This document shows positions 3,573 through 46,128 of a stretch of DNA of 64,000 bases, piece after piece. Below the pieces are notes generated by a model. It worked only from the letters and a program-made list of their open reading frames with translations. It had not been told where the DNA came from and did no database searches. The DNA is from a virus (lineage: Duplodnaviria > Heunggongvirae > Uroviricota > Caudoviricetes), in the IMG/VR virus record IMGVR_UViG_3300031853_000004, positions 37,319-101,318 of that record. One strand, 5' to 3'. The number at the start of each line of letters is the position of its first letter. Position 1 is the stretch's first letter. The position numbers and the translations under genes are program-made.

Positions 3573-3573
3573 T

Positions 3574-3903: not shown

Positions 3904-3908
3904 TTTTA

Positions 3909-3948: not shown

Positions 3949-3957
3949 TGCTATAAT
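3929..3957 (+). promoter_or_regulatory. TTGACA-N17-TATAAT promoter
   Basis: Exact hexamers with 17-nt spacer. Confidence 0.5.
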
Positions 3958-3990
3958 TATATAAATGATAAAGAAAGTAGGTGAATTTAA

Positions 3991-16136: not shown

Positions 16137-16227
16137 GGAGTATTGGCCGAGTGGTTGAAGGCAACTGCCTAGAAAGCAGTAGAATGATAATCGCGTTCCG
16201 GAAGTTCAAATCTTTCATGCTCCGCCA
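16137..16227 (+). tRNA. tRNA-Ser (type II, long variable arm, G73), anticodon read as AGA
   Basis: Cloverleaf folds by hand: acceptor GGAGTAT/ATGCTCC, D-arm GCC-GAGTGGTTGAA-GGC (near-identical to E. coli tRNA-Ser), anticodon stem ACTGC/GCAGT with loop CTAGAAA, long variable arm, T-loop TTCAAAT, encoded CCA. Confidence 0.75.
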
Positions 16228-29970: not shown

Positions 29971-30383
29971 TGGAAAAAGATAAAAAAATTGAGGTTGGCA
30001 CGCTGTATGATTTAAATAAACAAGTGATTAGTCAATTGCCAGAGATGCCGCAAGAGCAGATTCAAGAACAGTTAACTAAAATACAAAAATGGTTTGCCGA
30101 ATCTAAAGGAAAGTATTTTATGCTACTTTGTCGAGAAAAAGCAGATTATACTTTATTTAACTTTAACGGTAAAGATATTCCAGATGTGTTTTTAGAGTTT
30201 ATAAGAAAAATGTCTATTAAAGCCATCAAAGAGTTAGAAAAATGTATTAAAAATAGAGGCATCTTAATGTCAATTAATAAAGCAACAGAAGATGCTTGGG
30301 AGATTTGGATTAAAGATTTCTTTAACAAAGAAGTTCATATGTATATGTTATTTGAATGCGATCCAATGGTAATTGAAATTTAA
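29970..30383 (+). CDS. hypothetical protein
   Basis: TAATG overlap. Confidence 0.4.
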   Translation: MEKDKKIEVGTLYDLNKQVISQLPEMPQEQIQEQLTKIQKWFAESKGKYFMLLCREKADYTLFNFNGKDIPDVFLEFIRKMSIKAIKELEKCIKNRGILMSINKATEDAWEIWIKDFFNKEVHMYMLFECDPMVIEI

Positions 30384-30395
30384 GAAGGTGATATA

Positions 30396-30638
30396 ATGAA
30401 GGTAGTAATAGATGCAAGTCCAGAGAGACTAAGTAGTATTACTTATTATGATGGGATTGGTAATCAAATTTATCCTCCACGTCAAATAGCTATAGATGAT
30501 ATTAAAAACTATATGCTTGGAGTTTCTAATGAATTTGATATTAATGAAATTGTAGTAGCAGGTCCGCAAAATTATACTGAAAAATTAGTTAAAGACTTAA
30601 AAGCAACTTTTAAAACAGTTAATTTTACACTTGCTTAA
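30396..30638 (+). CDS. hypothetical protein
   Basis: AGAAGGTG RBS. Confidence 0.4.
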   Translation: MKVVIDASPERLSSITYYDGIGNQIYPPRQIAIDDIKNYMLGVSNEFDINEIVVAGPQNYTEKLVKDLKATFKTVNFTLA

Positions 30639-30659
30639 AGATATAAAGGAGATAAAAGG

Positions 30660-30929
30660 ATGATTAAATATTTACTAAAGACAACTAATGAAATTTTTGT
30701 GCTTACTGAAGAAGATGCTAACACTTTACATAAAGAGATTGAAGAGTTTGCGCATTCCAATAATTTTACTCTTTACTCTTGGACTCAAACTTTAAAAGAG
30801 AAAAAGTCAAAAGGAGAAGTAATTGATAGCTGGGTAATTTGTAAATATACGTTAGTATTCAACGATCCTAAAGAGCCAGAAATTCCTCTAAAAGATATTG
30901 AATACAATATGGGAGGTCAATATGAGTAA
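30660..30929 (+). CDS. hypothetical protein
   Basis: AAAGGAG RBS. Confidence 0.4.
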   Translation: MIKYLLKTTNEIFVLTEEDANTLHKEIEEFAHSNNFTLYSWTQTLKEKKSKGEVIDSWVICKYTLVFNDPKEPEIPLKDIEYNMGGQYE

Positions 30930-31356
30930 TGAAGTAGATATTAAAATTCATTATTTACAAGGTTCTCCGCATTTAGAAAAAACAGATATTGGCTCTTGGA
31001 TTGATTTATATGTTTATGAAGATACCACTTTAAAGGCTGGACAAAGAAAATATATTTCTTTAGGAGTTAGTATGCAACTTCCAGAAGGATATGAAGCCTT
31101 AATGGTTTCTAGGAGTTCTACTTTTAAACGTTGGGGACTATTACAAACCAATGCAATTGCAATAATAGATAATTCTTATTGTGGAACAGACGATATATGG
31201 ATGTATCCTGCATTAGCAACTAAAGATGTAGTAATTCCAAAAGGTACAAGAATTTGTCAATTCAGAATTCAAAAAGAACAGCCTAAAATTAAATTTATTG
31301 AATCAGATTATTTAAATTCTATTTCAAGAAAAGGTCTAGGAAGTACTGGTGTGTAG
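30922..31356 (+). CDS. dut: dUTP diphosphatase (trimeric dUTPase)
   Basis: SRSSTFKRWGL and GLLQTNAIAIIDNSYCGTDD motifs; GGGAGG RBS. Confidence 0.65.
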   Translation: MSNEVDIKIHYLQGSPHLEKTDIGSWIDLYVYEDTTLKAGQRKYISLGVSMQLPEGYEALMVSRSSTFKRWGLLQTNAIAIIDNSYCGTDDIWMYPALATKDVVIPKGTRICQFRIQKEQPKIKFIESDYLNSISRKGLGSTGV

Positions 31357-31364
31357 GAGGTAAA

Positions 31365-31547
31365 ATGATTTGTTGTTGTACCTTAGCTGGGACTAAAGCA
31401 TGTAAACATTGTTTTAATAATAGTAATAGTTATAGTTGGACTCAAACAATAACTACCAATATTCCAATAGATGAAGATTTTACAAAAGAAGATTACAAAG
31501 AAATTTTAAAATATATTATTGATAAAGAGAAAAAGGAGGTTCTTTAA
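31365..31547 (+). CDS. hypothetical small Cys-rich protein
   Basis: ORF with GGAGG RBS. Confidence 0.35.
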   Translation: MICCCTLAGTKACKHCFNNSNSYSWTQTITTNIPIDEDFTKEDYKEILKYIIDKEKKEVL

Positions 31548-32456
31548 ATGAATCCTGTTTCTGTTGCGGTACTTTTTTTTGGAATAATAATAATTGTATT
31601 ACTTTTTATAATAAATTTTAATAAAATTTATAAAATCATTGGAGCAATTTTAGGTACTTTATTAATTTTATTATCTTTTTGCATATATACGCAAGACGTA
31701 GGTGAAGTTGTAGTATTAAGAAATCTGGGAGGAGAACTTGCGGGGTATACAGAAGCTGCTGGTTTTCATATAAAGACGCCTTGGCAAAATACAATTGAAT
31801 ATGATGTAAGAAATAACATTATTAATTTATATAGAGAAGATGAATACAGTTATGATAATGGAAAGGCATCTGGTTCAGAGGTAACAGTATATGATAAATC
31901 TGGAGCTCAAGCAAACGTAGATGTTCAAGTTATTTATAGTTTGGATGCGGATGCTGCTATAGAGTTATATACTAAATATCAAGAACAATCTAACTTTGTA
32001 CAAATTGTAGCGGTGAATAATGTACGAGACGCTGCAAGAAATGTTTCAGGTCAATTTTCAACCATTCAAATGCTAACAAGTAGAGAAGATTATGCAAAAG
32101 CAATCTATGATAAATTAGTAAAAGATTGGGATGAACTTGGACTTCATGTTGAAGAAGTTAATGTTCAAGATATTAGATATAATCAAGAAATTATTGGTGC
32201 ATATAATTCAGCTCAGAAAACAGAAATTAGCAAAGTTGAAGCACAAAATCAGCAAGAAGCTGAAAAAATTAAAATGGATACAGAGGTAATGAAAGCTCAG
32301 AAAGAAGCTGAAGCTAATGAAATTAGATCAAAATCATTAACTCCAGAAATTCTTGAACAACAATATATTGATGCTTTAAAAAATGGACAAAATGTTTATG
32401 TTGTACCAGAAAATAGTATGCCTTTAATTAATTTACAACAAGAAACAAAAGAGTAA
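31548..32456 (+). CDS. SPFH/band-7 (stomatin/prohibitin-like) membrane protein
   Basis: N-terminal TM helix, SPFH-like core, C-terminal coiled coil. Confidence 0.55.
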   Translation: MNPVSVAVLFFGIIIIVLLFIINFNKIYKIIGAILGTLLILLSFCIYTQDVGEVVVLRNLGGELAGYTEAAGFHIKTPWQNTIEYDVRNNIINLYREDEYSYDNGKASGSEVTVYDKSGAQANVDVQVIYSLDADAAIELYTKYQEQSNFVQIVAVNNVRDAARNVSGQFSTIQMLTSREDYAKAIYDKLVKDWDELGLHVEEVNVQDIRYNQEIIGAYNSAQKTEISKVEAQNQQEAEKIKMDTEVMKAQKEAEANEIRSKSLTPEILEQQYIDALKNGQNVYVVPENSMPLINLQQETKE

Positions 32457-32463
32457 GATAAAA

Positions 32464-32500
32464 AGCTGCGAACAAAAAAAAATGTTCGTAGCTTTTTTTA
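32464..32500. terminator. bidirectional rho-independent terminator (A-run, 11-bp stem, T-run)
   Basis: AGCTGCGAACA-A9-TGTTCGTAGCT flanked by A and T tracts. Confidence 0.55.
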
Positions 32501-32507
32501 TTTTAAT

Positions 32508-32517
32508 ATTCGGTGGA
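32508..32517 (+). repeat. cassette-boundary repeat copy 1 (TATTCGGTGG)
   Basis: Exact 10-mer; heads segment 1 in x-S-V frame. Confidence 0.6.
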
Positions 32518-32810
32518 AAATGTGGTGACTCCAACAAGCGGTGTCAAATTCATACAACTTGGACGACTTGTTGTTATATCACTTGACCTGGTTGTTTCTG
32601 GCGTGACGGGCTTAGGAGCGCCACCAGCATTAGCACAGTTTCCTTTCATAGCAAGAAATAGCTCCACTGGTGATATGGCTGCGTTTTGGGTTAATAATAC
32701 TTCTGATGGAAAACTCACTCTGCAAGTTTATAAGGCTACTGGGTATACGCAAGGCGGAACCTATGCCGCCAGCTTTGCATATATGACAAGTAGTTCGTCT
32801 CTGTGATTTG

Positions 32811-32820
32811 TATTCGGTGG
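32811..32820 (+). repeat. cassette-boundary repeat copy 2 (TATTCGGTGG)
   Basis: Exact 10-mer inside the 3' end of segment 1 in another frame. Confidence 0.6.
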
Positions 32821-33164
32821 GCAACGTCAATAGTGATATTGCACCATTAGGAACCACAGTATACAATTTAAGAAATACCTCTCAAAAAGATACATTAGTC
32901 GGTCGCGGAACTTTACTTACTAATGCAAATATGAATGATTATAAAATTCCTGGGATGTATACTTTATCAGCGAAGAATTATACAGCTTCTCCTTCTGGAG
33001 TTAACACTCAGTGAGGATTATTTATTATTTTTAGAGCTGCTGAATCTGGAAGTACACAACAAGTAATTATAGGAACAAGCGCTGAACCTCAGACTATTTA
33101 TTTTAGAAGATATGGAGGAGCTGTTTGAGGCTCTTGAATGAAAATAAGTGGGCAATTGGTTTAA
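32811..33164 (+). other. cassette segment 2 (three TGA)
   Basis: Open in S-V frame from repeat to TAA 33162-33164. Confidence 0.45.
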
Positions 33165-33435
33165 ACTAATTATGCTGTTGTTGTAATTTTATTTTAATAA
33201 CTTCAACTGATTGGACTTCCGCTGTAAGATTGAAAATACATTTTAACATTAACGGCGTAGTAATGCCTGTTCTTATATTAAAAAATAAGAAAATTGTCTC
33301 TGAATTTGGAAAAGTTATATTAAAAATTATAATATTATCAGACACAAATTATAAGAGATTTTGCTTTAAAATCCATGTTATTTATTAAATTCCATCAAAT
33401 ATTAAAAATATTTCATTGGAATTAAAAAATAAAAT

Positions 33436-33460
33436 TTGACAACCAATTAGTTTTATATTA
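33436..33460 (+). promoter_or_regulatory. TTGACA with weak -10 (TATATT)
   Basis: -35 exact, short spacer. Confidence 0.3.
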
Positions 33461-33515
33461 AAATTTAATTAATAAAAGAAAAAGAAAAAAATTTTAGTAG
33501 AAAGAAGGTTGTCAA

Positions 33516-34367
33516 ATGTCTGAAAAAATGACAGTCCAAGAGTTCCATGATGAAATTTGGTGGCCACGTTGTTTAAAAAATTTAAGAGAATGTACGCAAG
33601 TAGGATATGATAGTGCATATAGACTACATATTGCCCCTTTTATGAAAGATAAATATCTTACTGAAATTACTCCTAGATATTTAGACCATTGGTTTAAAGA
33701 AGGTAATATTAAAGCTTCTACTTGGAAAATTTTCAAAGCAATGATTAGAGTGGCATATAAACTTGAATTAATTCCTACTGATCCGTGTGATAAGGTTCTA
33801 GATGCTCCTCCAAGAGGGACACCAAATCCTCCAACTCTAAATAGAATTGAGATGCAACAAATGTTAGATGGTCTTACTGATGTTCCATATTACGCGGCAA
33901 TTGTTTGTTCTGCAACGATGGGACTTCGTAGAGAAGAATCTTGCGGACTTCGTTGGGAAGATTTTAATTGGAGAACTAATGTTGTCCATATTCAGAGAGG
34001 TATGCAATTTGTAAATGGGCATATTGTTGTTGGCCCTACAAAGACTGTTATGAGTAATCGCAAATTACCAATGCCGCAAGATTGTATCGTTAGACTTTTA
34101 CCTATTAGAAAAGAAGAAGGATATATCATTGGTGATTTAAATCCTTCTCAAGTAGCTGGAAGATATAGAAGAGCTTGCATTTCTAGAGGACTTCCATATG
34201 TTCCCATGTCTAATCTACGGACCTCTTGGTGCACAATGTTAATTGGAGAAGGAGTTCCAGTTAGTAAAGTTAGTAGATATATGGGTCATACAGATGTTTC
34301 TACCACTGTTAGATGGTATACTAAACCTAGAGAAGATGAATTAATTGATGTTGCTGCATCTTTTTAA
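33516..34367 (+). CDS. tyrosine site-specific recombinase (Xer/Rci/integrase family)
   Basis: GLRREE (Arg I), NLRTSWCT (box II), SRYMGHTDVSTTVRWY (catalytic Tyr); no TGA; GAAAGAAGG RBS. Confidence 0.7.
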   Translation: MSEKMTVQEFHDEIWWPRCLKNLRECTQVGYDSAYRLHIAPFMKDKYLTEITPRYLDHWFKEGNIKASTWKIFKAMIRVAYKLELIPTDPCDKVLDAPPRGTPNPPTLNRIEMQQMLDGLTDVPYYAAIVCSATMGLRREESCGLRWEDFNWRTNVVHIQRGMQFVNGHIVVGPTKTVMSNRKLPMPQDCIVRLLPIRKEEGYIIGDLNPSQVAGRYRRACISRGLPYVPMSNLRTSWCTMLIGEGVPVSKVSRYMGHTDVSTTVRWYTKPREDELIDVAASF

Positions 34368-34387
34368 TAAAATTTAAATAAAAAAAG

Positions 34388-34425
34388 AACCCTACTTTCT
34401 TAATTGAAAGTAGGGTTTTATTTTT
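34388..34425. terminator. bidirectional terminator (GAACCCTACTTTC-loop-GAAAGTAGGGTT)
   Basis: 12-bp stem with A-run before and T-run after. Confidence 0.55.
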
Positions 34426-34427
34426 AT

Positions 34428-34700
34428 TTATATTCTTTTTATTTTTAATACTATATAACGAATATCAAATGTTGCATTATTAATTGTTGCCCCAGTATTC
34501 GGATTTGTAACAGTTAAAAATCATGCATTACTTTCTGCTGCTACTCACGCTTTAACAAAATAATTTTGACCTAATACAAATGGTGCTAAAATATATGTAT
34601 ATCCATCATTAGTTTCAGGTAAATATATATTTCCACTGTTACCAGTTGTAAAGTTTTCTGCTTTTCTATATACTTGAGATAAATTCATCGGAACCACCGA
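34428..34700 (-). other. cassette segment 3 (contains a possible independent GTG/ATG start; two TGA)
   Basis: Repeat GATTCGGTGG at 34691-34700 heads an ORF in the S-V frame to TAA 34428. Confidence 0.45.
34691..34700 (-). repeat. cassette-boundary repeat copy 3 (GATTCGGTGG)
   Basis: 9/10 match, inverted relative to copies 1-2. Confidence 0.55.
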
Positions 34701-34702
34701 AT

Positions 34703-34898
34703 CTTATTTGACCCAGATTTGTTTTGAACTATTTTCACCTTGCAGTTTTCTTCGTAGTTCAATAGTTGTATCTGAAAAATTTAGATAATAAGCTTTTGAG
34801 GTTTGAGGTGCTAAAAATTGTAGTTGTAATAAATCATCTGCACTGTTTACAACAAAAGCATATGTTCATCCTTCATATACAATTCTATCCACCGAATA
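34703..34898 (-). other. cassette segment 4 (one TGA)
   Basis: Repeat TATTCGGTGG at 34889-34898 then 64 codons to TAA, which directly abuts repeat 3. Confidence 0.45.
34889..34898 (-). repeat. cassette-boundary repeat copy 4 (TATTCGGTGG)
   Basis: Exact 10-mer, minus orientation. Confidence 0.6.
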
Positions 34899-34942
34899 TT
34901 AATTTCACCAGCTTTATTAAATTGGTAATCTTTACATTATCA

Positions 34943-35247
34943 TTATTCCGCACATGTATATGTAACAGAGCTGTCTACATACTGTATGTTAATTGTTGAG
35001 AAAAATTCAAAAAATGTAGTATGCACGCTAAAATACCCAATTACGGCAGTGCCTGAGAATAACGCTGATATTGCGTATGTACCATCGATAGGTTTTGCCC
35101 AACTAGGAACAATATCTCACAGTTTCTTTCCTGTATTCGCAGTTAAATCCTCCTTTGACCAAACAACGTTAATATTGACAATTCGTCCAAATCGCTGTAC
35201 GTGTATTGAATGTTCACTAATATTCTGCGATTTATATTCCACCGAAG
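34943..35247 (-). other. cassette segment 5 (one TGA)
   Basis: Degenerate repeat CCTTCGGTGG at 35238-35247 then about 100 codons to TAA. Confidence 0.4.
35238..35247 (-). repeat. cassette-boundary repeat copy 5 (CCTTCGGTGG, degenerate)
   Basis: 8/10 match, minus orientation, directly downstream of terminator. Confidence 0.4.
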
Positions 35248-35258
35248 GCTAAAAAAAT

Positions 35259-35295
35259 AAACCCCTTGACTTATCACTCAAGTCAAGGGGCTTTT
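35259..35295. terminator. bidirectional terminator (CCCCTTGACTT-loop-AAGTCAAGGGG) ending the minus-strand late unit
   Basis: 11-bp stem, A7 before and T6 after. Confidence 0.55.
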
Positions 35296-35697
35296 TTAAT
35301 TATCATTGGTAATTGTTAATGGTTCACTTGGTAAAGACATTATTTCTTCATACATTGCTTTACCTAAACCATTCCCTCCAAGTTTTGCATATGCAGTTTC
35401 AATTTTTTCTACATATTCTTTTGTAGTCGTTGAAGCATATTTATTTTGTTTAGCTTTTCTGTATTCAGAAATTAGCTCAGCTCTTAACATTGCTCGCATT
35501 CCGGCAGTCATTGAATCATGTCATTCAGTATCAAGTTCACGATTTTTTTTCTGTTCTTCACGTGCCTGTTCTCTTTTATTATCAAAGTCATCCAATTTTC
35601 TACCCATGCCTCTTTGCATTAAAAAGATAATCAGTGGCACTAAAAAGATTTCAAGCAAGTTAAGGACTGCGGTCACCGTTGAATCCAATGGTACCAC
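35296..35697 (-). CDS. membrane-anchored small protein (N-terminal TM; one TGA)
   Basis: AGGAAAGAGG RBS then GTG 35697; extends ORF 35296..35511 upstream through TGA 35521. Confidence 0.4.
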
Positions 35698-35713
35698 CTC
35701 TTTCCTTTCTTTT

Positions 35714-36124
35714 TTAATTTCTAAACATTTTTACTGAAAGTCTTGGGTTTGCTCCAAGATTAATCTCTGTAGTCCCGGTGTTTGTCAATAGAACAGTATC
35801 ACCATTTCCGCAACAACATGTTTTAACAAACGTAGAAGCGGAAACATTTTGTAAATCACCTGCTGCGGCAGTTACAACTGTACTATTTGTTTCAGGAAGA
35901 GGCGCACCATCTAAAGTAATACCAATAGTAGCGTCACCAGCAGCTGTCCCTCCAATATTACCATTAAAGGAAACTTCATAAACAACATTGTTTTGGTTTA
36001 GATTTATAGAACCAGAGTTGTTTCTATGACATTCTGTACAGCCGACATGTAAAATAACTGTATCAAAAACTGCTGATTGACCAGGAGCTAATGTTTGAGC
36101 AATTGAATTAGAGAGTTCAATCAT
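35714..36124 (-). CDS. hypothetical Cys-rich (CCC) protein
   Basis: ORF; no TGA. Confidence 0.45.
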   Translation of the reverse strand: MIELSNSIAQTLAPGQSAVFDTVILHVGCTECHRNNSGSINLNQNNVVYEVSFNGNIGGTAAGDATIGITLDGAPLPETNSTVVTAAAGDLQNVSASTFVKTCCCGNGDTVLLTNTGTTEINLGANPRLSVKMFRN

Positions 36125-36149
36125 TATAAGTCCTCCTATCTACTTTAAA

Positions 36150-36815
36150 TTAGAAATTGCAGCCGCACCCATTAGGACAGAAGGGATTTGGGCCAGCGTT
36201 ATAAGCAGTAGAATTAGGATAACGCACAACACCAGCTACCGCATTTTGAAGCTCTAACTGATTAATTCTATTTTGCATATCATCCATTCTATTGGAAGTA
36301 ATAGCATCAAGAATTCTTTGAGTTTGTTCAGTAGTATTAGCATTAATAGCCGCAGTATTCATAGCAGCATTGAAGTTAACACCATCAATAGCTCTTAAAG
36401 TATTACAACAGCATTCTTGCTGATTGGAAATTATCTGTTGATCTATTAAAGCAATTCCACTAATATCACGTTGAAGTTCATTATATTTATCATTAAAAGC
36501 ATTCATTAGATATTGAGTATTTTGATTAGCATTTTGCATACCTTGAAGAGAATTACTATTAATAGCTGCTAAAATTTCTCTTTCATTAGCCATAGAATTT
36601 TGATTATCAAAACCACGCTGAACTTCATTAGAAGTAGCTAAATTTTCATAACCAATAGCATTAGCGAAGCCATTTCCACCAAAACCAAAACCACCATTAG
36701 CAAGAATAAGTAGAGCAAAAATCCACATAAAGCCCATACCATTTCCCCAGCCATCTTCATTTCTTGCCATTAACGCAACATCACTTGCAGTGAGCCCACC
36801 ATTCATATCAGCCAT
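36150..36815 (-). CDS. membrane protein with Gly-rich TM segment and CCC/CGC motifs
   Basis: FMWIFALLILANGGFGFGG; no TGA. Confidence 0.45.
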   Translation of the reverse strand: MADMNGGLTASDVALMARNEDGWGNGMGFMWIFALLILANGGFGFGGNGFANAIGYENLATSNEVQRGFDNQNSMANEREILAAINSNSLQGMQNANQNTQYLMNAFNDKYNELQRDISGIALIDQQIISNQQECCCNTLRAIDGVNFNAAMNTAAINANTTEQTQRILDAITSNRMDDMQNRINQLELQNAVAGVVRYPNSTAYNAGPNPFCPNGCGCNF

Positions 36816-36834
36816 GATGTACCCCTCTCTTCTT

Positions 36835-37092
36835 TTATTTTAATTGGTTTAAAATAGTATTTGGATCTACTCCTTTTTGAGCAGCCAAATTATAGAAAGC
36901 AGTCTTAGCATCTCCACCATTTTGATTTATATAATTTACTATACCTTGAAAATTAGGATTATTTGTTAACATTTTTTCCATAGCTTCTGTTGGATTAGAA
37001 GAATTTTTTATCTGTTTCATTAAATCCAATAGAGAGTTAGAATGCGGAGCTACTGACTGCTTATTAAAAGAAGAAAAAATAGGATTACTCAT
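36835..37092 (-). CDS. hypothetical protein
   Basis: ORF with RBS. Confidence 0.4.
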   Translation of the reverse strand: MSNPIFSSFNKQSVAPHSNSLLDLMKQIKNSSNPTEAMEKMLTNNPNFQGIVNYINQNGGDAKTAFYNLAAQKGVDPNTILNQLK

Positions 37093-37519
37093 TCTTCATC
37101 ACCAAGTCTTCCATTAATTGTTTAAATTCATTGAACTCAGTCTTCGTTACAAAATCACTAACGTCCTGTGCTTGAGTTTGAATAATTTCTCTTTGCATTA
37201 AAGGAATTTCTTCAAATTTAAATGCTTTGGTCTCTGAATAACCTGAATCATCGCTTTGTTTAAAATAAAAAACAGGTCTGTTAGTATCCATTAAAATTAC
37301 TCTAGAGTTGGGTCCAACTTGATATGCCTGTGCGCTTTCAGGTCCCATAACCTCTAAAACATTATTAATTGGTTGTCTTTGATTTTGCATCTGCGGATTT
37401 TGCTGCATTTGAGGATAATTATTTCTTGACATTTGAGAATAACCGGAAGAATAATTATTCCCCACCCATAAGTTGTTAGCAGGTTGCGGCATTTGTCCCG
37501 CGAAAGAATTTTCATACAT
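37085..37519 (-). CDS. hypothetical Q/N-rich protein
   Basis: AGGAGG RBS. Confidence 0.45.
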   Translation of the reverse strand: MYENSFAGQMPQPANNLWVGNNYSSGYSQMSRNNYPQMQQNPQMQNQRQPINNVLEVMGPESAQAYQVGPNSRVILMDTNRPVFYFKQSDDSGYSETKAFKFEEIPLMQREIIQTQAQDVSDFVTKTEFNEFKQLMEDLVMKNE

Positions 37520-37547
37520 ATCTTTTCCTCCTTTTATCTCAAATTAT

Positions 37548-37805
37548 TTATTTTTCTATTAAATTTTTGAATGCTTCGTATGCACCAGTGGAAGCTAAAC
37601 CACTAGCCATACCTATCATTACTGTATTAAAATCAAAAGTGTGTAAACCCCACGCATTGAAAATTATTCCAAGAATAGCTACGATTAATGGGATAAAACG
37701 ATTGATTCTATCATCTGGATAAATGTTCTTTAAAATATATCCTATCATTAAACAAGCTATTACAATTATTGGAGAAATTAAACTAGTAAAAACTTCTAAA
37801 TCCAT
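37548..37805 (-). CDS. holin-like protein (two TM helices, 85 aa)
   Basis: Two hydrophobic helices and a charged C-terminus; GGAGAATAATT RBS. Confidence 0.4.
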   Translation of the reverse strand: MDLEVFTSLISPIIVIACLMIGYILKNIYPDDRINRFIPLIVAILGIIFNAWGLHTFDFNTVMIGMASGLASTGAYEAFKNLIEK

Positions 37806-37807
37806 AA

Positions 37808-37975
37808 TTATTCTCCTACAATGTAGCCTTCTTGAATTAGTTCTTCAATCATTTGTGCACGTTGACCCGCGGAAAGTTTAGGATATGAATCAAGAATATC
37901 CTCTATATTTTCACCTTTCTTTAGGCGAACGATTACAGCTTTTTTAATAATTTTGTAAGCAGTATTTGTAACCAT
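37808..37975 (-). CDS. hypothetical 55-aa protein
   Basis: ATG overlapping upstream TAG; not in ORF track (<60 aa). Confidence 0.3.
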   Translation of the reverse strand: MVTNTAYKIIKKAVIVRLKKGENIEDILDSYPKLSAGQRAQMIEELIQEGYIVGE

Positions 37976-37977
37976 AA

Positions 37978-38661
37978 CTACACCTCTTCTTCCTCGCCGC
38001 CAACTAGCTCCGCAAGCATAAGAAGTAGATCTTCGATTGTCTCTTGGGCTTCTGCTAATTTAGCAGGACCATTTGCCATAAACTCTCTATCCGCAAGTTC
38101 TTTTTCTGTAAAAAGAACATAACGATAGAAGATAGTTTGTTCATCATAAGCTGGAATAGCCTGTTGATCAACAACAGATGTAATTGTTTGTCCTGTTACA
38201 ATATGCACTTCTTCGCCGTCAAGATTTATATATTCAAAAATGCCTTTTTTGGCATCAATTACTCGAATATGTGGATCATCTTCAGACTCAGGAACATAAA
38301 TTTCACCATTAGAGAAGTCAAAAGATACAATCTTGTAGTGCCATTCTTCAGGCACTGAAGGATGATGTACTGTAAATACTTCTTTTCTTAAATATCCTAA
38401 ATCTAAATCAGGATTAAGAATTTCTTCATTGTTCTGATCTATAACAGGATATTCATAAGAAAATCCACTATTTTGAGTAACTTTATTTGAAATCTCTTCA
38501 TTGTTTTGATCTATAACAGAATCTTCATTTGAAATTTCTTCATCATCTTGATTTATAGCAGGGTCTTCGTTTGAAGTCTCTTCATTATTTTGATTTATAG
38601 TAGGATCTTCATAAGAAAATTCACTATCTTCAGTAACTTCATTTAAAATCTCTTCATCCAA
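37978..38661 (-). CDS. acidic protein with N-terminal Asp/Glu-rich repeats
   Basis: Repeated ..NEE(I/T)SNED.. units; TAG stop. Confidence 0.5.
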   Translation of the reverse strand: MDEEILNEVTEDSEFSYEDPTINQNNEETSNEDPAINQDDEEISNEDSVIDQNNEEISNKVTQNSGFSYEYPVIDQNNEEILNPDLDLGYLRKEVFTVHHPSVPEEWHYKIVSFDFSNGEIYVPESEDDPHIRVIDAKKGIFEYINLDGEEVHIVTGQTITSVVDQQAIPAYDEQTIFYRYVLFTEKELADREFMANGPAKLAEAQETIEDLLLMLAELVGGEEEEV

Positions 38662-38762
38662 TTCCTATACTCTCCTTTCTTTTTCCTAGTTTTACCAATA
38701 ATATTTAGAGAGTTTTCTTTTTTTGACCCTCTCTATTATTATATAAAAATTAGCTAAAGAAA

Positions 38763-38779
38763 ATTATAAAAAATTGCCC
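38763..38779 (-). promoter_or_regulatory. GGGCAA-N5-TATAAT motif promoter (minus strand)
   Basis: Minus strand reads TAGGGCAATTTTTTATAAT upstream of gene 37978..38661. Confidence 0.4.
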
Positions 38780-38892
38780 TAGAAATTTTTTAAAGAAGCT
38801 TAAAATTTTAAATTTTATTAACTTTTACATTGTCTCATGAGATCCTTTTGGATTGCTTATAATAAATCTATCTAATATAAAGACTTATGTTG

Positions 38893-39204
38893 TTATATAA
38901 ATTCATTAGTTGCATATATACATGTGCCACCCAACCAACCAGCTAAAGAGATGTCTCCATTAGCTCTAAGGGTTTTGTCGTTGGATAAAGAAAGTCCACG
39001 GTGATTATTTGAATTAGATACAGTGAAAAAGTTCTCGTCTTTCAATGGCGTAGGTATATTAGAAAATGTTGCGAGAACAGCACCATTGGTTGCGTTAGGA
39101 ATGGTTATTTGTACAGTAAAAATAACCAGATTTCCTATGCGAGTCCATTTGGTACCTGGACGCACAGTGACTCCAGATATTGCTGTATACGAAGGAGTCT
39201 TATA
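38893..39204 (-). CDS. fibre-tip-like ORF / cassette segment 7
   Basis: Same frame as segment 6, preceded by CCTTCG; GTG start 39163; TAA stop. Confidence 0.35.
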   Translation of the reverse strand, partial: YKTPSYTAISGVTVRPGTKWTRIGNLVIFTVQITIPNATNGAVLATFSNIPTPLKDENFFTVSNSNNHRGLSLSNDKTLRANGDISLAGWLGGTCIYATNEFI

Positions 39205-39387
39205 TTATAAACTATTCCAACCTGCAATATCCTTTTGACCTTTCCACTTTCCATCCATGTAAATATCAGCGACAAGTTTATTATCTGCTCTCAATGTAAA
39301 AAGCAGTATAACACCGTTACTAGCAGTAAAATGGGCACTAATCGGATTCGTTGTTGTGGAGGTGACACCAAACTTATCCACCGAATT
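39205..39387 (-). other. cassette segment 6 (NSVDKFGVTSTT...), begins at repeat copy 6
   Basis: Open in the S-V frame for 60 codons to TAA 39205-39207. Confidence 0.4.
39378..39387 (-). repeat. cassette-boundary repeat copy 6 (AATTCGGTGG)
   Basis: 9/10 match; its first nt pair is part of the TAA stop of the upstream fibre gene. Confidence 0.55.
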
Positions 39388-40075
39388 ATATTGATGCTAA
39401 ATAAGTTGCTTGTCCATACCAATGTCCTCAAACATTCCCGCAATATCAAGGCATAGCTTTCCCATCTGTGCCAAAATTTATATTAGCTAATACTGTATCA
39501 GCATTTCCATTTGCTAAAACAATAGTTCCACCGACTAAAGCTTTAGGAAAATTGGTTCCAATTACAGCTGTGTTATTAGATGAATATTTACTTTTAAAAT
39601 TAAAATCATAAGTAACTTGAACAATAGCATAACTATTACAGTTTTGTTTTCTTCAAGCAAGGGTAGCTCCACTACTAATATAACTACCATGCAAAGTTCC
39701 ATTTCCAGATGAGACCCCCATATTATAAGTAGTATTATTATCTTGTTGGGTAAAAGTAAATTTGCCACCAGAATATCTGGTAGCAGTAAAAGTAGTGCCT
39801 GAACGAGTAATACTTTTTATTGCATCTGGATATGTACTATTGTTATCCTGTTGAGTGAACGTAAAAGTTGTACCGTTAGCTCTAGTTGCCGTAAAAGTAG
39901 TTCCACTTCTTGTTATATTTTTTATACTATCAGAAGTAGAAGCTTTACTAGCCACCGAAGACTCTAAAGCTGTCACACGCGTATTGAGTGCCGATACTGC
40001 GGATAAGGTGTTAGCGTCTAATAAATCATAAGTTGTACCATTTACTGTTACTTGAGATATAGTATTATTTGCCAT
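39386..40075 (-). CDS. tail-fibre protein with internal 33-aa duplication (one TGA at 39653); candidate constant region of the cassette system
   Basis: AAAGGAG RBS; duplicated IK(N/S)ITRSGTTFTATR..FTFTQQDNN(S/T)TY; TAA stop overlaps repeat 6. Confidence 0.5.
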
Positions 40076-40164
40076 ATCTTATCTCCTTTCATTTTAATAT
40101 ACTTTTTATATTAAATAGAAGGAGACACAATGGTTCCTTCTATATCATTTTATTTCCTAAAGTC

Positions 40165-42486
40165 CTAAACAGGACTAACAACATTACTAAAACTTAAAAC
40201 ATAATCAGTGGTTCCCGCAGGTTGAGAAGTTGGTTGAATAGTATTAATAGATATTTCTGCTCTTGGAGCGCCAATATTAACTCTAACTTCTTCAGCAGTT
40301 GTACCACCAGTCCCTCCAAGAGAAATAGGTAAGATTCCAAATTGTGGTTCTATATTACTACCAGTAGAATAAAAGGCTCCTTTGGAACTGCTAATTTGTT
40401 TTAAGCCATTATCTTGATTACCAACTACAATAGCATTATTTACAAAACCTGTTTTCCCAGTACCACCTTGTTGAACTGGCAATGTGCCAAAATGCGGAGC
40501 ATCTGTTGAGTTAGTAGCATATAAAGCTCCTGAAATAGTTTCAATGCTACCAATGCTATTATTTTGACCTTGACCTAAAAGAATCTGATTTCTAGTGAAT
40601 CCAATTTGACCAGTTCCTCCAAGAGTAATAGGTAATACACTAACAGTTTTTACTGGATCAGTTCCATTGCCTAAAAGTATATTATCTAACGCAAATGAAG
40701 TTTGTCCGGTTCCACCTTTAGAAACCTGAACTGTTTGATTAGCAATATTATTTACATATGTTTCTGTTGCAAATTGATAATCTTTTTTAACAGTTAATAC
40801 TCTATTTACATAAGTTAAGTCAGAGACTGCATTTCCTGAACCAGATTGAATTATAGAAGCAATATTGCCATCTTGACCTTTAATATTGGTTAAAGAAAGA
40901 TTTAAAACTTTCTTACCATCTTCATCTGATCAACTCGCTGATCCAGTCGGGTCGGAAGATACATCACCAGGTGTTACAGTTAAATTAACTTCTGGTCTTA
41001 ATTGCGGCATCGGACCTTGAATGCCTTGTTCACCTTTGATCCCTTTAAAATCAAAATGTAACTTTTGTTTAGTATTATTATCATAAACTGATGGTGTTAT
41101 CGTAACTCTAGGATTACCTACTGTATTATCTACTGTCCCATCCGCGCTATCAATAACAACTCCCATATTTTTAAAATTAAAAGTTAAATTTTGTTTACGA
41201 GTATCAGATCCATCATCAATATTTTCTGTATCAATATTTACTTGCGGAACTCCATATTTTTTATCTATTGTAGCAGAATGTGTTCCAAAATCCATAGGCT
41301 TTCCCCGAGGTAAAGTAAAACTTAATTTAGGATGATCTAATTGTGTATTATCTATGCTAACTTCACCTGTTTGATTTCAAGGAATTATTGACACATTTTT
41401 TTCAACTACAAACTCTGGTTGAGTTGGAGACATATCAGTGATAAATATTAACCTATCATTTCCTAAAGATGAATCAATTAATTCTAATGGTCTGTAATAT
41501 AATTCACCATTAGTGGGATCAGATTGAGAAAGAATTAATAAAACAAAAGTACCTAGAGGAATTCCAGATGGATTTTCTTCATCTTCAACGATTTCTTCAT
41601 CTAAAGCCGCATACATCTCTTCTTTAGAGTTAAAAGTTCTTGAAATTCTAAAAGAATCTCCTTTATCTCCTTTTTCTCCTTGTGGAATAGTAACTATGTA
41701 AGTTGTCTTTTTGATAACCTCAGAATCTTCTTCATCGAATTCATCTATCTTTTCAACTTCTACGGAATTTCCTGATTTAAACTTAAAATCAACATTTGCG
41801 ACTTTGCCTTGAGCCCCTCGCGGTCCTACAGGTCCTATTCCACCTTGATCGCCTTGTTCTCCTTTAAAATTAGAAAAAACAAAATCAATATCTGTAGTAA
41901 AGAAATCTTCATCTTCTACAGTATCGCCCATAATGACTTCTACGTTAGGTTCTCCGCCGTCCTCTACCACGGTGGCCCGCACTTCTCCAATTTTACTATC
42001 TTTACCTCTTGGACCAATAGGGCCAACATTACCAGTTTTACCTTGAGGAATGTTTAAATATAATATTAATTTAAATTTATTATTTAAAGTTTCAACTATT
42101 TCTACTCTACTCTCTTGGATGGGGTCGTCACTCTCTACTGGAATAACCTCAACGCCTGCAATAGAATCTTCTGTTAAAACTTTTTTATTGTCAATTTTTA
42201 TATTTTTTAGAAAATTAAAATCATTTTCTGCATTTATCTTTACATCGCTATTACTAAATTTTTCAACAGTAATAGGAATTAATTTCTTTTTATCCTCCGC
42301 AGTCATCAATCCTGAATTTTCAGAAGTAGCTTCTGGAATTACAGGAGTAACTGTGTATCTATTATTATTTAAATCTACTTTTAAAGAAGCTATATTATTT
42401 TCTTGTAAAACAAAATAGATAGCTCCTTCTTCTATCGTCGCAGGTAATTCTGCAACGGAATGATAAAATTTTATATTATTTGCCAT
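40165..42486 (-). CDS. large tail-fibre protein with collagen-like Gly-X-Y stretches (773 aa, two TGA)
   Basis: GGAGG RBS; ORFs 41377..42486, 40930..41295, 40165..40482 in one frame; the 448-nt gap was translated by hand and has no stop; GPIGPRGKD and GEQGDQGGIGPVGPRGAQG. Confidence 0.55.
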
Positions 42487-42542
42487 TATAAACCTCCAAA
42501 TCCAATATAATAGGGGCTTTTATCAAGCCCCTATTTAAATCA

Positions 42543-42912: not shown

Positions 42913-44019
42913 TTATTCAACTGTAACAGTTCCAGCAGTGCCAGTAAATGTAGGCTGTGATACTGTACCAGCAGGAGTAAATCCTTCTGTTTCAAGGTGA
43001 GCCCCTGTACCTGTAAAGGTAGGTTGAGAAACTGTGCCTTCAGGAACAAAATCCGTCTCAATTGTTGCGGTAGTGCCTGCAAATGCACCTGTAAGTTCAA
43101 CGCCTGTACCACTAAAGGTAGGTTGTGATACACTACCGGCAGGAGTGTAAGTAGCAGTTAGACGAGTACCAGTGCCGGTAAACGCTGGAGTACTAGCAAG
43201 CTCAGCAGAAGCACTTGTCATTACTGTAGTAGCTGTTCCAGCAGTTGGAAGAGTACCTTGACTAAACCCAATAGTAAGAGTTTCATTGGCAACAGTTGTT
43301 GTTAATTCAGGAAGAGTTCCTACACTAGCAATTGGAGTAACAGAAGTTGTAGAAGGAGTTACTGTAATATCTGGCTTAGAAACGCTACCTGCGGGAGTGT
43401 AAGTAGCAGTACCAGCTCCGCCAGAAACTGCGATTGTAGCTTCTGTACCTGAGAACGAAGGCTGAGTTACTGTACCAGCAGGAGTATAATTAGCAGCGCC
43501 AGTACCAGTTCCAATAGAAACATTACCAGCAGGGGTATAGGAAGCACTTCCTGTACTTGTTGCTCCAGTAAAGGTGGGTTGAGAAACTGTACCCGCAGGA
43601 GTATATGTGGCATCACCAGAACCTGCGCTAACTTCTAAACCAGTATTAGCTGTGCCAGTAAAAGTGGGTTGAGATACAGTGCCAGAAGGTGTAAAGCTAC
43701 CTGTCGCAGAACTCTTAAAAGCTAAAGCTCCAAGAGAACCTAAATCACCAAACTCATGCCATTTATTATCAATATCAGAAAATACAAATTCTTTATCACC
43801 TTTAATTGCTACATCACCTGCGACAGCAGTAACATTTTGAGAATCAATTACAATTGGATTAGTTGTACTGCCATCTGCAATGTCGCTTGTAGTTACACCA
43901 AGAAAATGCAGTGCACCACTCAAGGAACCTGTTAAAGTTTCGATATCTTGACGTGCTTGAGCGTCTTTAATTGTATAAGTCGATCCACTAGGGAGCGTAA
44001 TTTGAGAAATATCTGCCAT
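42913..44019 (-). CDS. structural (fibre/decoration-like) protein with about eight tandem 15-aa repeats (YTPAGTVSQPTFTGT)
   Basis: Tandem repeats at protein and DNA level; GGAGG RBS. Confidence 0.55.
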   Translation of the reverse strand: MADISQITLPSGSTYTIKDAQARQDIETLTGSLSGALHFLGVTTSDIADGSTTNPIVIDSQNVTAVAGDVAIKGDKEFVFSDIDNKWHEFGDLGSLGALAFKSSATGSFTPSGTVSQPTFTGTANTGLEVSAGSGDATYTPAGTVSQPTFTGATSTGSASYTPAGNVSIGTGTGAANYTPAGTVTQPSFSGTEATIAVSGGAGTATYTPAGSVSKPDITVTPSTTSVTPIASVGTLPELTTTVANETLTIGFSQGTLPTAGTATTVMTSASAELASTPAFTGTGTRLTATYTPAGSVSQPTFSGTGVELTGAFAGTTATIETDFVPEGTVSQPTFTGTGAHLETEGFTPAGTVSQPTFTGTAGTVTVE

Positions 44020-44037
44020 GTTATTCGACCTCCTTTA

Positions 44038-44478
44038 TTAATTAGAATAAACCACGTCTGCGGCAAGTATAAGTCTTACCTCTCCAGAACCAGAATTAAT
44101 TTCATCTACTATTGGTGCAGCATATGCTTTAACATGTCTTTGAATACTTAAAAAATCTACCATTGGTAAATCAATTATATAAGCACTTCCATCACCAATT
44201 TTTACACCAACTTGATCTCCATTAGAATCTGTTACTATATAAATAGCACCTCTTTTAGAAACTATTCCTATTAAGGCTGACATTTGAGATTCTGTATAAA
44301 TATAAGTTGGTTGGGCGCCTATCCGCAGACGTTTAATACCAGAGTCTACATATAACTCTCCTCTAGTTAGGCCGTTAACGGCAGCTTCTCCTGTGTCAAC
44401 GACGTAAATGGCGCCATCATGTTGTTCTTGAGGTAAGGAGGATTCAGAGCCGCGAAAGAATTTAACTTGACTTGGCAT
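44038..44478 (-). CDS. hypothetical structural protein
   Basis: AAAGGAGG RBS; TAA stop. Confidence 0.5.
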   Translation of the reverse strand: MPSQVKFFRGSESSLPQEQHDGAIYVVDTGEAAVNGLTRGELYVDSGIKRLRIGAQPTYIYTESQMSALIGIVSKRGAIYIVTDSNGDQVGVKIGDGSAYIIDLPMVDFLSIQRHVKAYAAPIVDEINSGSGEVRLILAADVVYSN

Positions 44479-44553
44479 ATAACCTCCTTTTAAATAAATA
44501 AACTAAGAAGGGAGGAAAAAATTTTTTCTCCTCCCAAGATATTACAAATAAAA

Positions 44554-46128
44554 TTAAGCTAAGCTGCCCCACTGTAATGCTGCATCGGTGTAAGCTTTAG
44601 CATTAGCTTCCGCAGCAGTAGCAGAACCAGCAGCGTCAACGGCAACACTATCAATTGCAGTAATTTCACCATCAACTTGAGTAACACCAGTTACAACAGC
44701 AACGGCATTAGTATCCGTATCAGCAACACTAAGGGCTGCATCAAGATCTGCATCAAGAGCTTCAACAGCTGTGGTAACAGCATCGTCAGCATAAGCTTTA
44801 GCACCATAGATAGTATTAGCAGAAGCCGCATCAGTGCTAGCGCCAATTACAGCAGCTTTAGCACGAGTAGCTGCACCGGCAGCATCGGCAGCAACACTAT
44901 CAACACCAGTGATGATACCAGCAACCTCTGTTACGCCAGTAACTACTGCAACAGCTTCAGCATCTGTATCACCAGCACCAAGAGCAGCATCAACATCAGC
45001 ATTAAGTGAGCCAACGCCATCGCCAACTTTCTCATCTACATAACCAACGACAGTTGTAGCTTGAGAAGTACCAGGAATAGCGCCAATAGTATCAAGCGCA
45101 GCAGCTGCTGTTGTCTGACCATAAGCTACATTAGCAGCAGTAAGAGCAACTTCGTCAACGCCAGTAATAACACCGTCAACCTCGGTGATACCAGTAATTA
45201 CTGAACCAGCAGTAGCATCAACATCAGCATCAAGAGCACCAATGGCCGCGGCAATTTTACCATCGACACCGGTGGAAGCGGCAGTCTCAAGAGCATTGAT
45301 AGCTTGAGCTACTGTCTGCTTAGCAACGTACCCATCCTCACCAGGAGTACCAGACTCAGCACGATAAACAATCTTGGAAGCCGCAATCTCTCCAACAGTA
45401 GCAGAGATTGTATGGTTTGTATCAGTTAGAGTGATTTCATCTGTGCTCTGAACAGCATTATACTCAATTAGGTCAGCAACAGGGATGTAGAAAGGTGTAC
45501 CATTTGCAATGGTCATCTTAATGAATGTGCCTGCATTACCCTGACCGTCTTCATTAACAAGCTCACCATTAGTAGCAACCATATCTTTAGAGATATCAAT
45601 TGTACCATTGGTAATAGCAACGCCACCTTGACTAAAAGTATAACGAGTAGCAAAATCATCATTTGTACCACCAGTTGTTTTAGTAACAGTTACAGCAGAA
45701 GCACTCTGTGCGGTACCAATTTTACCAACAATTTCAGCAAGAGCAGCTTCTACGTTAGTAGAGTCAAGATTGCCAGCAGTATCAACAACAGCTACATCTG
45801 CGGCAGTACCGCTTTTAGCTACAGCAGCAAGAGAATTGTCAAGTGTTTCAACAAGACCTGTAACTGTTTCATCACCAGCCGCAATTGACTTATCAATGTA
45901 ATCAATAAGATCAGTATACCCAGCATCTACAGGGAGTGTACCAATCTGCTCACGAAGGAGAGCAAGATCAGCAGCAGCACTTGAAGAGCCACCGTCATAA
46001 AGAACTGTACCCTTATAGATCTGATGCGTACCAGCAATAAAATAAATTGTATTAGCATCAAAAGCTGCAATTTGCTCGGCTGTTACTGTACCAGGAACAT
46101 AGACAAATTTAACTAAATTAGTAGCCAT
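44554..46128 (-). CDS. GC-rich Ala/Val/Thr/Asp-rich structural protein with three about 39-aa repeats
   Basis: Repeats DADVDA..AVVTGVTEV.G.ITG.DSVA; about 50% GC in a 30% GC genome; no TGA. Confidence 0.55.
   Translation of the reverse strand: MATNLVKFVYVPGTVTAEQIAAFDANTIYFIAGTHQIYKGTVLYDGGSSSAAADLALLREQIGTLPVDAGYTDLIDYIDKSIAAGDETVTGLVETLDNSLAAVAKSGTAADVAVVDTAGNLDSTNVEAALAEIVGKIGTAQSASAVTVTKTTGGTNDDFATRYTFSQGGVAITNGTIDISKDMVATNGELVNEDGQGNAGTFIKMTIANGTPFYIPVADLIEYNAVQSTDEITLTDTNHTISATVGEIAASKIVYRAESGTPGEDGYVAKQTVAQAINALETAASTGVDGKIAAAIGALDADVDATAGSVITGITEVDGVITGVDEVALTAANVAYGQTTAAAALDTIGAIPGTSQATTVVGYVDEKVGDGVGSLNADVDAALGAGDTDAEAVAVVTGVTEVAGIITGVDSVAADAAGAATRAKAAVIGASTDAASANTIYGAKAYADDAVTTAVEALDADLDAALSVADTDTNAVAVVTGVTQVDGEITAIDSVAVDAAGSATAAEANAKAYTDAALQWGSLA

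Follow-up and report, generated by a model that had tools for sequence, protein, structure and literature searches.

Shufflons in which a tyrosine recombinase exchanges the tips of phage receptor-binding proteins (RBPs) have already been published, so far from small temperate phages of Actinobacteria (Rin; PMC6109161) and recently of Bacteroidota (PMC13596623). The Rin shufflon was described in prophages of Bifidobacterium breve and Bifidobacterium longum (Mavrich et al. 2018, PMC6109161), a Rin-type shufflon was reported in 2022 in prophages of Eggerthella lenta (PMC8778435), and a preprint of 2026 describes a tail-fibre shufflon in BV01-like phages of Phocaeicola (PMC13596623). The locus presented here extends this kind of system to a large phage that has a low GC content and recodes TGA in its late genes. 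It lies in a stretch of 64,000 nucleotides (hereafter 'the window'), positions 37,319 to 101,318 of the IMG/VR virus record IMGVR_UViG_3300031853_000004 (Caudoviricetes). In our judgement it is very likely an RBP-head shufflon, in which multi-site inversion between seven short core repeats (R0 to R6) around a tyrosine recombinase of 283 aa would exchange the receptor-binding head at the C-terminus of a small tail-fibre/RBP protein.

The likeness to Rin (PMC6109161) concerns several traits. Both loci have a phage-encoded, XerD-like tyrosine recombinase without an arm-binding domain; both join a constant N-terminal part (Rc, a role taken in the window by a part of 39 codons) to dissimilar variable C-terminal cassettes (Rv); both place a short asymmetric repeat (the 11-bp rix in Rin) directly before each cassette, in both orientations; and in both the cassettes resemble the RBP head of TP901-1. 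Judged from the sequence, the window shares all structural hallmarks of Rin save the core sequence, inversion at the level of reads being left aside. The rix site reads TTCCCTAACCC whereas the core of the window is (A/C)TTCGGTGG, so that the repeat of the window is not a rix sequence. Further differences concern the setting. Rin resides in small high-GC temperate siphoviruses, the window in a phage of about 90 kb with 31% GC and TGA-recoded late genes. The Rin recombinase stands at one end of the cassettes, that of the window amid them. Unlike in Rin, the expression site of the window is located 4.7 kb from the main cassette cluster, and the invertible segment (7 kb) therefore carries the recombinase and a holin module. 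Lastly, the inversions of Rin were observed in reads, whereas those of the window are deduced from assembled sequence.

The best annotated phage relatives of the recombinase, Siphoviridae sp. ctl617 (36% identity) and Bifidobacterium phage PMBT6 (34%), bridge the two. They encode an 'integrase' between the tail-fibre and lysis genes and carry short repeats of mixed orientation, ATTCCGTAACCC in seven copies (5 + 2) and AGCTTTCCGTAA in three, which resemble the rix site (PMC6109161). Since ATTCCGTAACCC is present in these intermediate relatives and the core of the window differs from rix, the window appears to represent a different specificity group of the same kind of system.

An earlier note on this DNA, made from its letters alone, had compared the locus with Rci-type shufflons and with fibre switching of the Min/Cin type. 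The shufflon of R64/IncI plasmids (Rci, sfx, pilV) is indeed similar in its tyrosine recombinase, its multiple inversions, its constant N-terminus with alternative C-termini, its short asymmetric sites with one conserved side, and its tightly packed and overlapping cassettes. Unlike the window locus, however, it acts on a conjugative-pilus adhesin, its Rci protein has 384 aa with a C-terminal extension, and its sfx site measures 19 bp; a phage fibre as target and a conserved site of 8-13 bp set the window locus apart from the Rci/sfx type by description. Gin of Mu, Cin of P1, Pin of e14 and Min of p15B likewise swap the receptor-specific C-terminus of a phage tail fibre by inversion, and Min has six crossover sites and many cassettes. 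These systems use serine invertases, sites of 26 bp and an enhancer that depends on Fis, and the Min/Cin comparison is therefore functional only: it holds for what is switched and fails for the mechanism, for which the Rin shufflon is the right relative. In the BV01-like shufflon, similarly, the distal part of a tail-fibre gene forms a multi-cassette region flanked by a recombinase, and the motifs are directional and 10 bp long (PMC13596623). Every one of its configurations was seen in reads (PMC13596623). By description it differs in its motif, TGGGAGAACT, in having three cassettes in 1.7 kb, and in belonging to a temperate phage of Bacteroidota (PMC13596623).

Core repeats, cassettes and recombinase

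The 8-mer TTCGGTGG occurs in exactly seven copies in the 64 kb, as compared to 0.45 copies expected from shuffled sequences, none of which reached seven. The copies are confined to the 7.5-kb stretch from 32.5 to 40.0 kb (an enrichment of about 15-fold), two on the plus strand and five on the minus strand, around the recombinase. The core, (A/C)TTCGGTGG, is exactly ATTCGGTGG at five sites and CTTCGGTGG at two. In its own orientation, the first core base lies at 32509 (+) in R1 and 32813 (+) in R2 and, on the minus strand, at 34701 in R3, 34896 in R4, 35246 in R5, 39385 in R6 and 39959 in R0. The cores and the terminators beside them are:

32460-32497: terminator beside R1 (terminator scan)
32508-32516, plus strand: R1, core ATTCGGTGG, 10 nt past the terminator of the Band_7 gene (32460-32497)
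32812-32820, plus strand: R2, core ATTCGGTGG; a contig of the same phage, L056, ends exactly at 32820
34694-34702, minus strand: R3, core ATTCGGTGG
34889-34897, minus strand: R4, core ATTCGGTGG
35239-35247, minus strand: R5, core CTTCGGTGG
35259-35293: bidirectional terminator beside R5, between the passenger module and the cassette cluster (terminator scan)
39378-39386, minus strand: R6, core ATTCGGTGG, overlapping the TAA stop of the expressed cassette var0
39952-39960, minus strand: R0, the expression site, core CTTCGGTGG read in frame as Ser-Ser-Val (from the sequence, the homology breaks in relatives and the start of contig L058)

The earlier note had listed six of these repeats. All six are real, with coordinates within 1-9 nt, and the motif is not a common sequence of the window (all seven copies in 32.5-40.0 kb), but the claim that it occurs nowhere else missed the copy at 39952-39960 (-). 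The expressed gene and its in-frame site (N-terminus 40075-39959, R0 core 39959-39952) had not been found, and the copy at 39386 is no outlier, as it stands at the stop codon of the currently expressed cassette. Other observations of that note were borne out: the plus copies lie to the left and the minus copies to the right of a recombinase (33516-34367) that has its own promoter-like site (33436-33464, 11/12) and terminator (34386-34419), and the outer repeats stand beside terminators (32460-32497 and 35259-35293).

R0 lies within a tail-fibre gene of 229 aa (40075 to 39386, minus strand) that has a strong ribosome-binding site (RBS), AAAGGAGA. The core is read in frame in this gene, as MANNTISQVTVNGTTYDLLDANTLSAVSALNTRVTALES-SV-ASKAS (…ALES-SV…). 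The gene and the cassettes, translated with genetic code 4 like the late genes discussed below, comprise:

40075-39959, minus strand: constant N-terminal part, 39 codons, MANNTISQ...TALES, from the open reading frame (ORF); the same N-terminus is found on other cassettes in relatives
39386-39958, minus strand: var0, the head cassette now expressed, 190 codons, three in-frame TGA; its TAA overlaps R6
32510-32833, plus strand: silent cassette 1, 107 codons, one TGA; runs through R2 in another frame
32814-33164, plus strand: silent cassette 2, 116 codons, three TGA
34428-34700, minus strand: silent cassette 3, 90 codons, two TGA
34704-34895, minus strand: silent cassette 4, 63 codons, one TGA; its stop is one codon short of R3
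34943-35245, minus strand: silent cassette 5, 100 codons, one TGA
39205-39384, minus strand: silent cassette 6a, 59 codons from Ser-Val
38893-39204, minus strand: cassette 6b, 103 codons, free of TGA; its own core has decayed (CCTTCGTAT)

After every core the frame that reads Ser-Val is open, for 58-116 codons in the silent cassettes and 190 in var0, and ends at TAA or TAG with TGA as sense. The chance of each of these open frames is 0.002-0.04, TAA and TAG making up 5.2% of the codons in this DNA. The claim of open x-Ser-Val frames ending at TAA/TAG thus stands, for the 58-116 codons of the silent cassettes only if TGA is sense: eight in-frame TGA are found in the six silent cassettes and 6b, and three more in var0. 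At R1, R3, R4 and R5 a stop codon stands one codon upstream of Ser-Val (TAA-TAT-TCG-GTG and similar); at R6 the distance in that frame is three codons, and R2 lacks such a stop. The cassettes of R1-R6 have neither a promoter nor an RBS. The overlap of repeat 2 with the 3' end of segment 1 in a different frame was correctly noticed, while segment 4 adjoins repeat 3 rather than ending exactly at it, its TAA (34706-34704) lying one codon before. Likewise, the greater GC richness ascribed to the module applies to the left cassettes (0.40) but hardly to the right ones (0.32), the whole window having 0.31.

The composition of the cassettes, with 11% Thr, 9% Ser, 8.5% Gly and 8% Asn, is as had been described. 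When compared with each other, as the earlier note had proposed, they proved mutually dissimilar; the best pair has 27% identity at E ~1e-3, which makes them about as dissimilar as the Rv segments of Rin. Cassettes 1 and 5 have the motif (W/F)xRxGxLV in common with 6b. Cassette 2 matches phrog_3971 (7e-9); a tail-fibre PHROG is weakly matched at its C-terminus. Cassette 6b folds like the receptor-binding head of TP901-1/PSA. It was also the sole cassette queried, being free of TGA, in a search of 1.8 billion representative proteins, which yielded 11 relatives; the longer ones carry the domain C-terminally after ...ALRDSVS or ...LQESVS. With only its decayed core left, 6b is probably no longer movable on its own. 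It stands directly after 6a (TAA TAT AAG ACT CCT TCG TAT..., 39170-39230, minus strand). The possibility that the 229-aa ORF continues into cassette 6a by a +1 frameshift was considered and rejected, there being no slippery context. The concatenated cassettes, run as a single query against a set of 5.8 billion proteins, gave nothing at E<=1e-3, in a search that also missed the ORFs of the phage's own contig, probably through a limit in the collection of candidates.

The late genes of the window are legible only with TGA as sense, in which case back-to-back 'TGA-ended' ORFs fuse into proteins of 750-1835 aa. Counted in frame, TGA and TGG number 64 and 21 in the late genes (minus strand, 39386-63770), 3 and 123 in the early genes (plus strand, 2259-32456), 8 and 8 in the cassettes, and 0 and 8 in the recombinase. 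TGA falls on the conserved Trp of FGGTW in Gp10_C-type tips of relatives and is therefore read as Trp. A split code of this kind fits published reports that stop codons are recoded in late genes of phages. In view of the 123 TGG versus 3 TGA in the early genes, a host with native code 4 was rejected as the whole explanation. ARAGORN detected no suppressor tRNA reading UGA in the window.

The features of the recombinase are:

33436-33464: promoter-like (sigma70-like) site, 11/12 matches to the consensus (promoter scan)
33516-34367, plus strand: tyrosine recombinase, putative invertase, 283 aa, without arm-binding domain, eight TGG and no TGA (Pfam, PHROG)
34386-34419: bidirectional terminator behind the recombinase (terminator scan)

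The protein matches the Pfam families Phage_int_SAM_3 (4.5e-9) and Phage_integrase (4.4e-15), and its NCBIfam matches to XerA, XerD and IntI are weak and below threshold. Residues R138, K176, R235, H258 and Y268 are invariant across 22 homologs. By Pfam and PHROG, the locus and its surroundings hold a single recombinase, of the tyrosine type, and no serine invertase. About 30 homologs with 47-91% identity and three more distant ones were found in metagenomes; as a single query against IMG/VR, the recombinase gave no relative.

Relatives, and contigs of the same phage

A query with the 41-residue N-terminus returned three proteins (P0033, P0034 and P0035), each with a different head after Ser-Val. 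In contig L047 the fusion reads ...TALES|SV|GNIRLNV..., with 97% nucleotide identity to the window that ends at 39946, 6 nt past the core. L044 and L045 encode ...TTLES|SV|DWDPW...; their homology to the window stops at 39952/39953 and is found again from 38791, shortly before the next gene. In L046, which encodes ...TALED|SV|FPIGYI..., homology also stops at 39952/39953, the last core bases. As DNA homology stops at the core in L044-L047, the core is a mosaic boundary, with the constant anchor/neck on one side and exchangeable heads on the other. As a separate observation, the shufflon gene of L047 (232-555) has a mere 20-residue tail after Ser-Val, and the gene next to it joins a similar N-terminus directly to a Gp10_C-like tip without a core.

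A second relative, L039 (Logan SRR27107223), has a recombinase that is 83% identical and neighbouring proteins that are 68-94% identical to those of the window. It contains four exact copies of ATTCGGTGG with the same design of stop-(Y/D)-Ser-Val-ORF, and with cassettes that bear no relation to the window's own. The block of recombinase, cassettes and holin module, 7 kb in the window, is inverted in L039 relative to the early genes for Band_7 and dUTPase. At the conserved position of the Band_7 terminator and R1, L039 has the core variant TTTCGGTGT followed by a silent but complete 163-residue tip of the Gp10_C type (Pfam 1.3e-14), after which comes the holin module; the same tip type is joined to the constant N-terminus in L046. 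Read from the contig, this layout is that expected after R1 x R0 recombination.

The core is conserved over a still greater distance. L050, an IMG/VR contig with 61% GC, holds a compact version of the locus, with a recombinase that is 51% identical and the same core, ATTCGGTG. Its 406-aa gene reads ...QIDTLRD|SV|YREG... through ATTCGGTG, and is accompanied by four silent cassettes, each opening with '*H/Y|SV', one inverted core, and then the recombinase. One of these cassettes is homologous to cassette 6b. The guard stops before Ser-Val are TGA in L050 and TAA or TAG in the window, which would fit TGA not being a stop in the cassettes of the window.

Several searches delimit this distribution. 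L050 was the only real locus among the IMG/VR contigs with a three-core spacing pattern, the candidates L060 and L063 being tandem coding repeats and L061 a chance match. The pattern of N-terminus plus core junction gave zero matches in IMG/VR and JGI metagenomes, and megablast of positions 30000-42500 against 50,697 phage records gave no match. The fibre protein matched 36 loci in IMG/VR, all of them only through a common ITRSGTTFTATR repeat, and the presence of ATTCGGTGG in 13 of these 36 loci is a coincidence, as it encodes the FGGTW motif there. L012 and L034, relatives of the structural module at 60-70% amino-acid identity, have many complete small fibre genes, with neither cores nor recombinase. 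L040 (ENA ERZ14209547) has a recombinase that is 68% identical, reordered passenger genes and a 254-aa insertion inside the homolog of a 221-aa passenger gene; no TTCGGTG core is present in its 5.4 kb, and the system may have been lost there or the contig misassembled.

The phage of the window was itself recovered more than once. The ENA contig ERZ27256883 k141_301414 (89,658 bp) is the same sequence, with 2 mismatches over 14.8 kb, and several Logan contigs of the metagenome SRR9036418 represent the same phage with 0-1 mismatch. Among the latter, L056 covers 30985-32820 and ends on the last core base of R2, L038 starts at 32791 with a 30-nt (k-1) overlap with L056, and L058, spanning 36636-39959, begins with the first T of the R0 core. 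The contigs of this sample run unbroken through R1, R3, R4, R5 and R6. The cores alone cannot break an assembly graph, because they are far shorter than k. Breaks after '...GTA-TTCGGTGG' and before 'TTCGGTGG-CTAGT...' would be the signature of a junction of cassette-1 flank, core and var0, that is, of one R2 x R0 product, and we regard them as good but indirect evidence.

Proposed switching and competing explanations

In the expressed gene, the constant 39-codon anchor/neck (...ALES) is followed by Ser-Val from the R0 core and then by the current head, var0. In the proposed mechanism, the recombinase would act on oppositely oriented cores, so that the intervening DNA inverts and a new head lands behind ...ALES-SV. 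Because only R1 and R2 face R0 at present, the first switch would invert 7.4 or 7.1 kb. R0 x R1 or R0 x R2 would be the sole events to change the product from the present state, yielding fusions of 146 or 155 aa, and the segment inverted would carry the recombinase and eight passenger genes including the holin. The predicted junctions of R2 x R0 are J1, GTTCGTCTCTGTGATTTGTA-TTCGGTGG-CTAGTAAAGCTTCTACTTCTG, and J2, CGTGTGACAGCTTTAGAGTC-TTCGGTGG-GCAACGTCAATAGTGATATTG. Once flipped, R3-R6 would face R0, and short inversions could reach cassettes 3, 4, 5 and 6a, while R6 would only reshuffle silent material. The seven predicted products, the present one included, have 229, 146, 155, 129, 102, 139 and 98 aa. 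The expected outcome is progeny with about seven alternative tips and different adsorption specificities, and the exchange probably serves to alter the range of bacteria to which the phage attaches. We infer that the 283-aa enzyme catalyses the exchange, that inversion alone is used while deletion between direct repeats is avoided, and that host range is affected.

The earlier suggestion of a multiple-inversion shufflon that exchanges fibre tips by means of a tyrosine recombinase is supported by the conservation of the core in L039 and L050, the fusions in L044-L047, the inverted block of L039 and the contig breaks. We also think it probable, working from contigs rather than reads, that the shufflon is active today. 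Several points weigh against the shufflon reading. The conserved site of about 8-13 bp is short for a tyrosine recombinase, no second binding arm is evident at the cores, and the His of HxxR is not conserved in the recombinase clade (Ser232 here). Five cores are direct repeats, so that deletions, including loss of the holin module, would need to be avoided, and there may be a cost to turning this module round against the genes upstream of it. Of the two junction signatures expected from R2 x R0 one is present, L038 being unbroken at 32813. Two full assemblies of the phage carry the identical arrangement, and the layout of L039 could be a fixed evolutionary difference. Inversion is deduced from contigs, and since contigs and not reads were compared, no junction was seen directly. 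Finally, cassettes 1-5 and 6a are without detectable homologs, save the PHROG matches of cassette 2, and are therefore called heads by analogy.

The identity of two independent assemblies, the fact that the differences of L039 and L044-L047 lie between lineages and not inside one clone, and the loss of the 6b core would also suit a fossil mosaic, in which the cores mark, as scars or hot spots, where head domains once recombined between phages, and the cassettes are stored remnants. On that view the recombinase would be an ordinary integrase serving lysogeny or the resolution of dimers, and no inversion would take place at present. We consider this unlikely. Seven cores are exact amid unrelated flanks and seven cassette frames are still open; core and design are retained where the recombinase is 51% identical, and between genomes of 30% and 61% GC; in one sample, the contigs have breaks exactly at two of the cores; the nearest annotated relatives of the recombinase all lie in fibre-cassette loci; and neither an attP-like feature nor a prophage junction was seen.

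It is even less probable, to a degree that makes us discount it, that the cassettes are independent small tip genes which start at the GTG inside the repeat and are perhaps translationally coupled, the repeat being a shared start context, a possibility that the earlier note had also raised. Every core does contain a GTG, a stop lies 1-3 codons upstream at R1 and R3-R6, and the TAA of the 229-aa ORF is 4 nt before the GTG of R6. None of these GTGs is preceded by a Shine-Dalgarno sequence, however, whereas real genes here have AAAGGAGA, and the cassettes, found on both strands, follow terminators and lack a promoter. Moreover, Ser-Val is internal, at the join of N-terminus and head, at R0 of the window and in L044, L046, L047 and L050, and the homologs of 6b are C-terminal domains after ...(D/E)SVS. 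We give practically no credence to the idea that ATTCGGTGG recurs by chance or merely as code for a common fibre peptide such as FGG(TW). The 9-mer does occur once in each of 13 IMG/VR loci, inside fibre genes and encoding ...SFGGTW..., but 6 of the 7 copies in the window are followed within a few codons by a stop in the FGG frame, the copies lie at cassette boundaries, partly in non-coding DNA beside terminators, and the enrichment is limited to one 7.5-kb stretch.

An extension of the shufflon reading concerns timing. The invertible segment sits between the early (+) and late (-) transcription units, and both of its orientations exist in nature (window and L039). It is conceivable, though we hold it to be doubtful, that the 7-kb inversion also re-times transcription of the holin module and the invertase, coupling the host-range switch to lysis timing or to its own limitation. 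The cassettes, with their in-frame TGA codons, could moreover be translatable only once TGA-to-Trp recoding is active, which would layer the shufflon on a switch of genetic code.

The surrounding phage and the significance of the locus

The window is part of a phage genome of about 90 kb with 31% GC and its own replication genes. The latter occupy the plus strand at 2-32.5 kb (GyrB/GyrA-like, ligase, DnaB, RecJ, Pol III alpha, NrdD and dUTPase), and structural and fibre genes run on the minus strand from 64 kb down to 39.4 kb. Further features are:

16137-16227, plus strand: tRNA-Ser, anticodon AGA, 91 nt, the sole tRNA of the window (ARAGORN)
35296-38661, minus strand: eight-gene passenger module of the invertible segment, with the holin among its genes (gene calls)
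37548-37805, minus strand: holin (Pfam Phage_holin_5_2)

Three genes of the passenger module (35714-37519, minus strand; 136, 221 and 144 aa) accompany the recombinase homologs, and none of them has a Pfam match. This trio, which was traced in L039, L040 and L041-L043, persists even in an 85-kb phage with a recombinase that is just 50% identical. Two of its members have Cys clusters (CCC; C-terminal ...CPNGCGCNF). At 37978-38661 (minus strand) an acidic protein of 227 aa is encoded, with imperfect tandem repeats of 42 and 84 nt at 38423-38657 (...NQNNEE(I/T)SNEDP...); in L012, a relative from IMG/VR, the homologous gene is duplicated. The 85-kb relative L041 encodes an RVT_1 reverse transcriptase (3214-4413) 6 kb upstream of its recombinase homolog; the reverse transcriptase possibly belongs to a diversity-generating retroelement of this phage group.

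Among the fibre genes, those at 42913-46128 (minus strand) have the highest GC of the window (0.41-0.44). They are rich in Ala, Thr and Gly, contain repeated YTPAGTVSQPTF-like units and, in contrast to the adjoining late genes, have zero TGA. Collagen-like G-X-Y runs and a recurring GGTG(Q/K)T motif are features of the 773-aa fibre protein encoded at 40165-42486 (minus strand). A common anchor motif, MA(D/N)xxxI..G..Y.(I/L).D, stands at the start of many fibre genes of the window.

Three traits of the locus are unusual, namely a recombinase and a holin inside the invertible segment, TGA-bearing cassettes next to a TGA-free recombinase, and an 8-bp core across different GC contents. The location of the holin and recombinase raises the question of how they are expressed in each orientation. 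One recombinase clade keeps the 8-bp core ATTCGGTG in genomes from 31% to 61% GC. This core offers a simple signature for finding such systems, and a defined pair of enzyme and site for inversion tools. Assemblies of such phages represent one configuration among many and tend to break at the cores, and a host-range prediction from a single assembled fibre gene misses six alternative heads.

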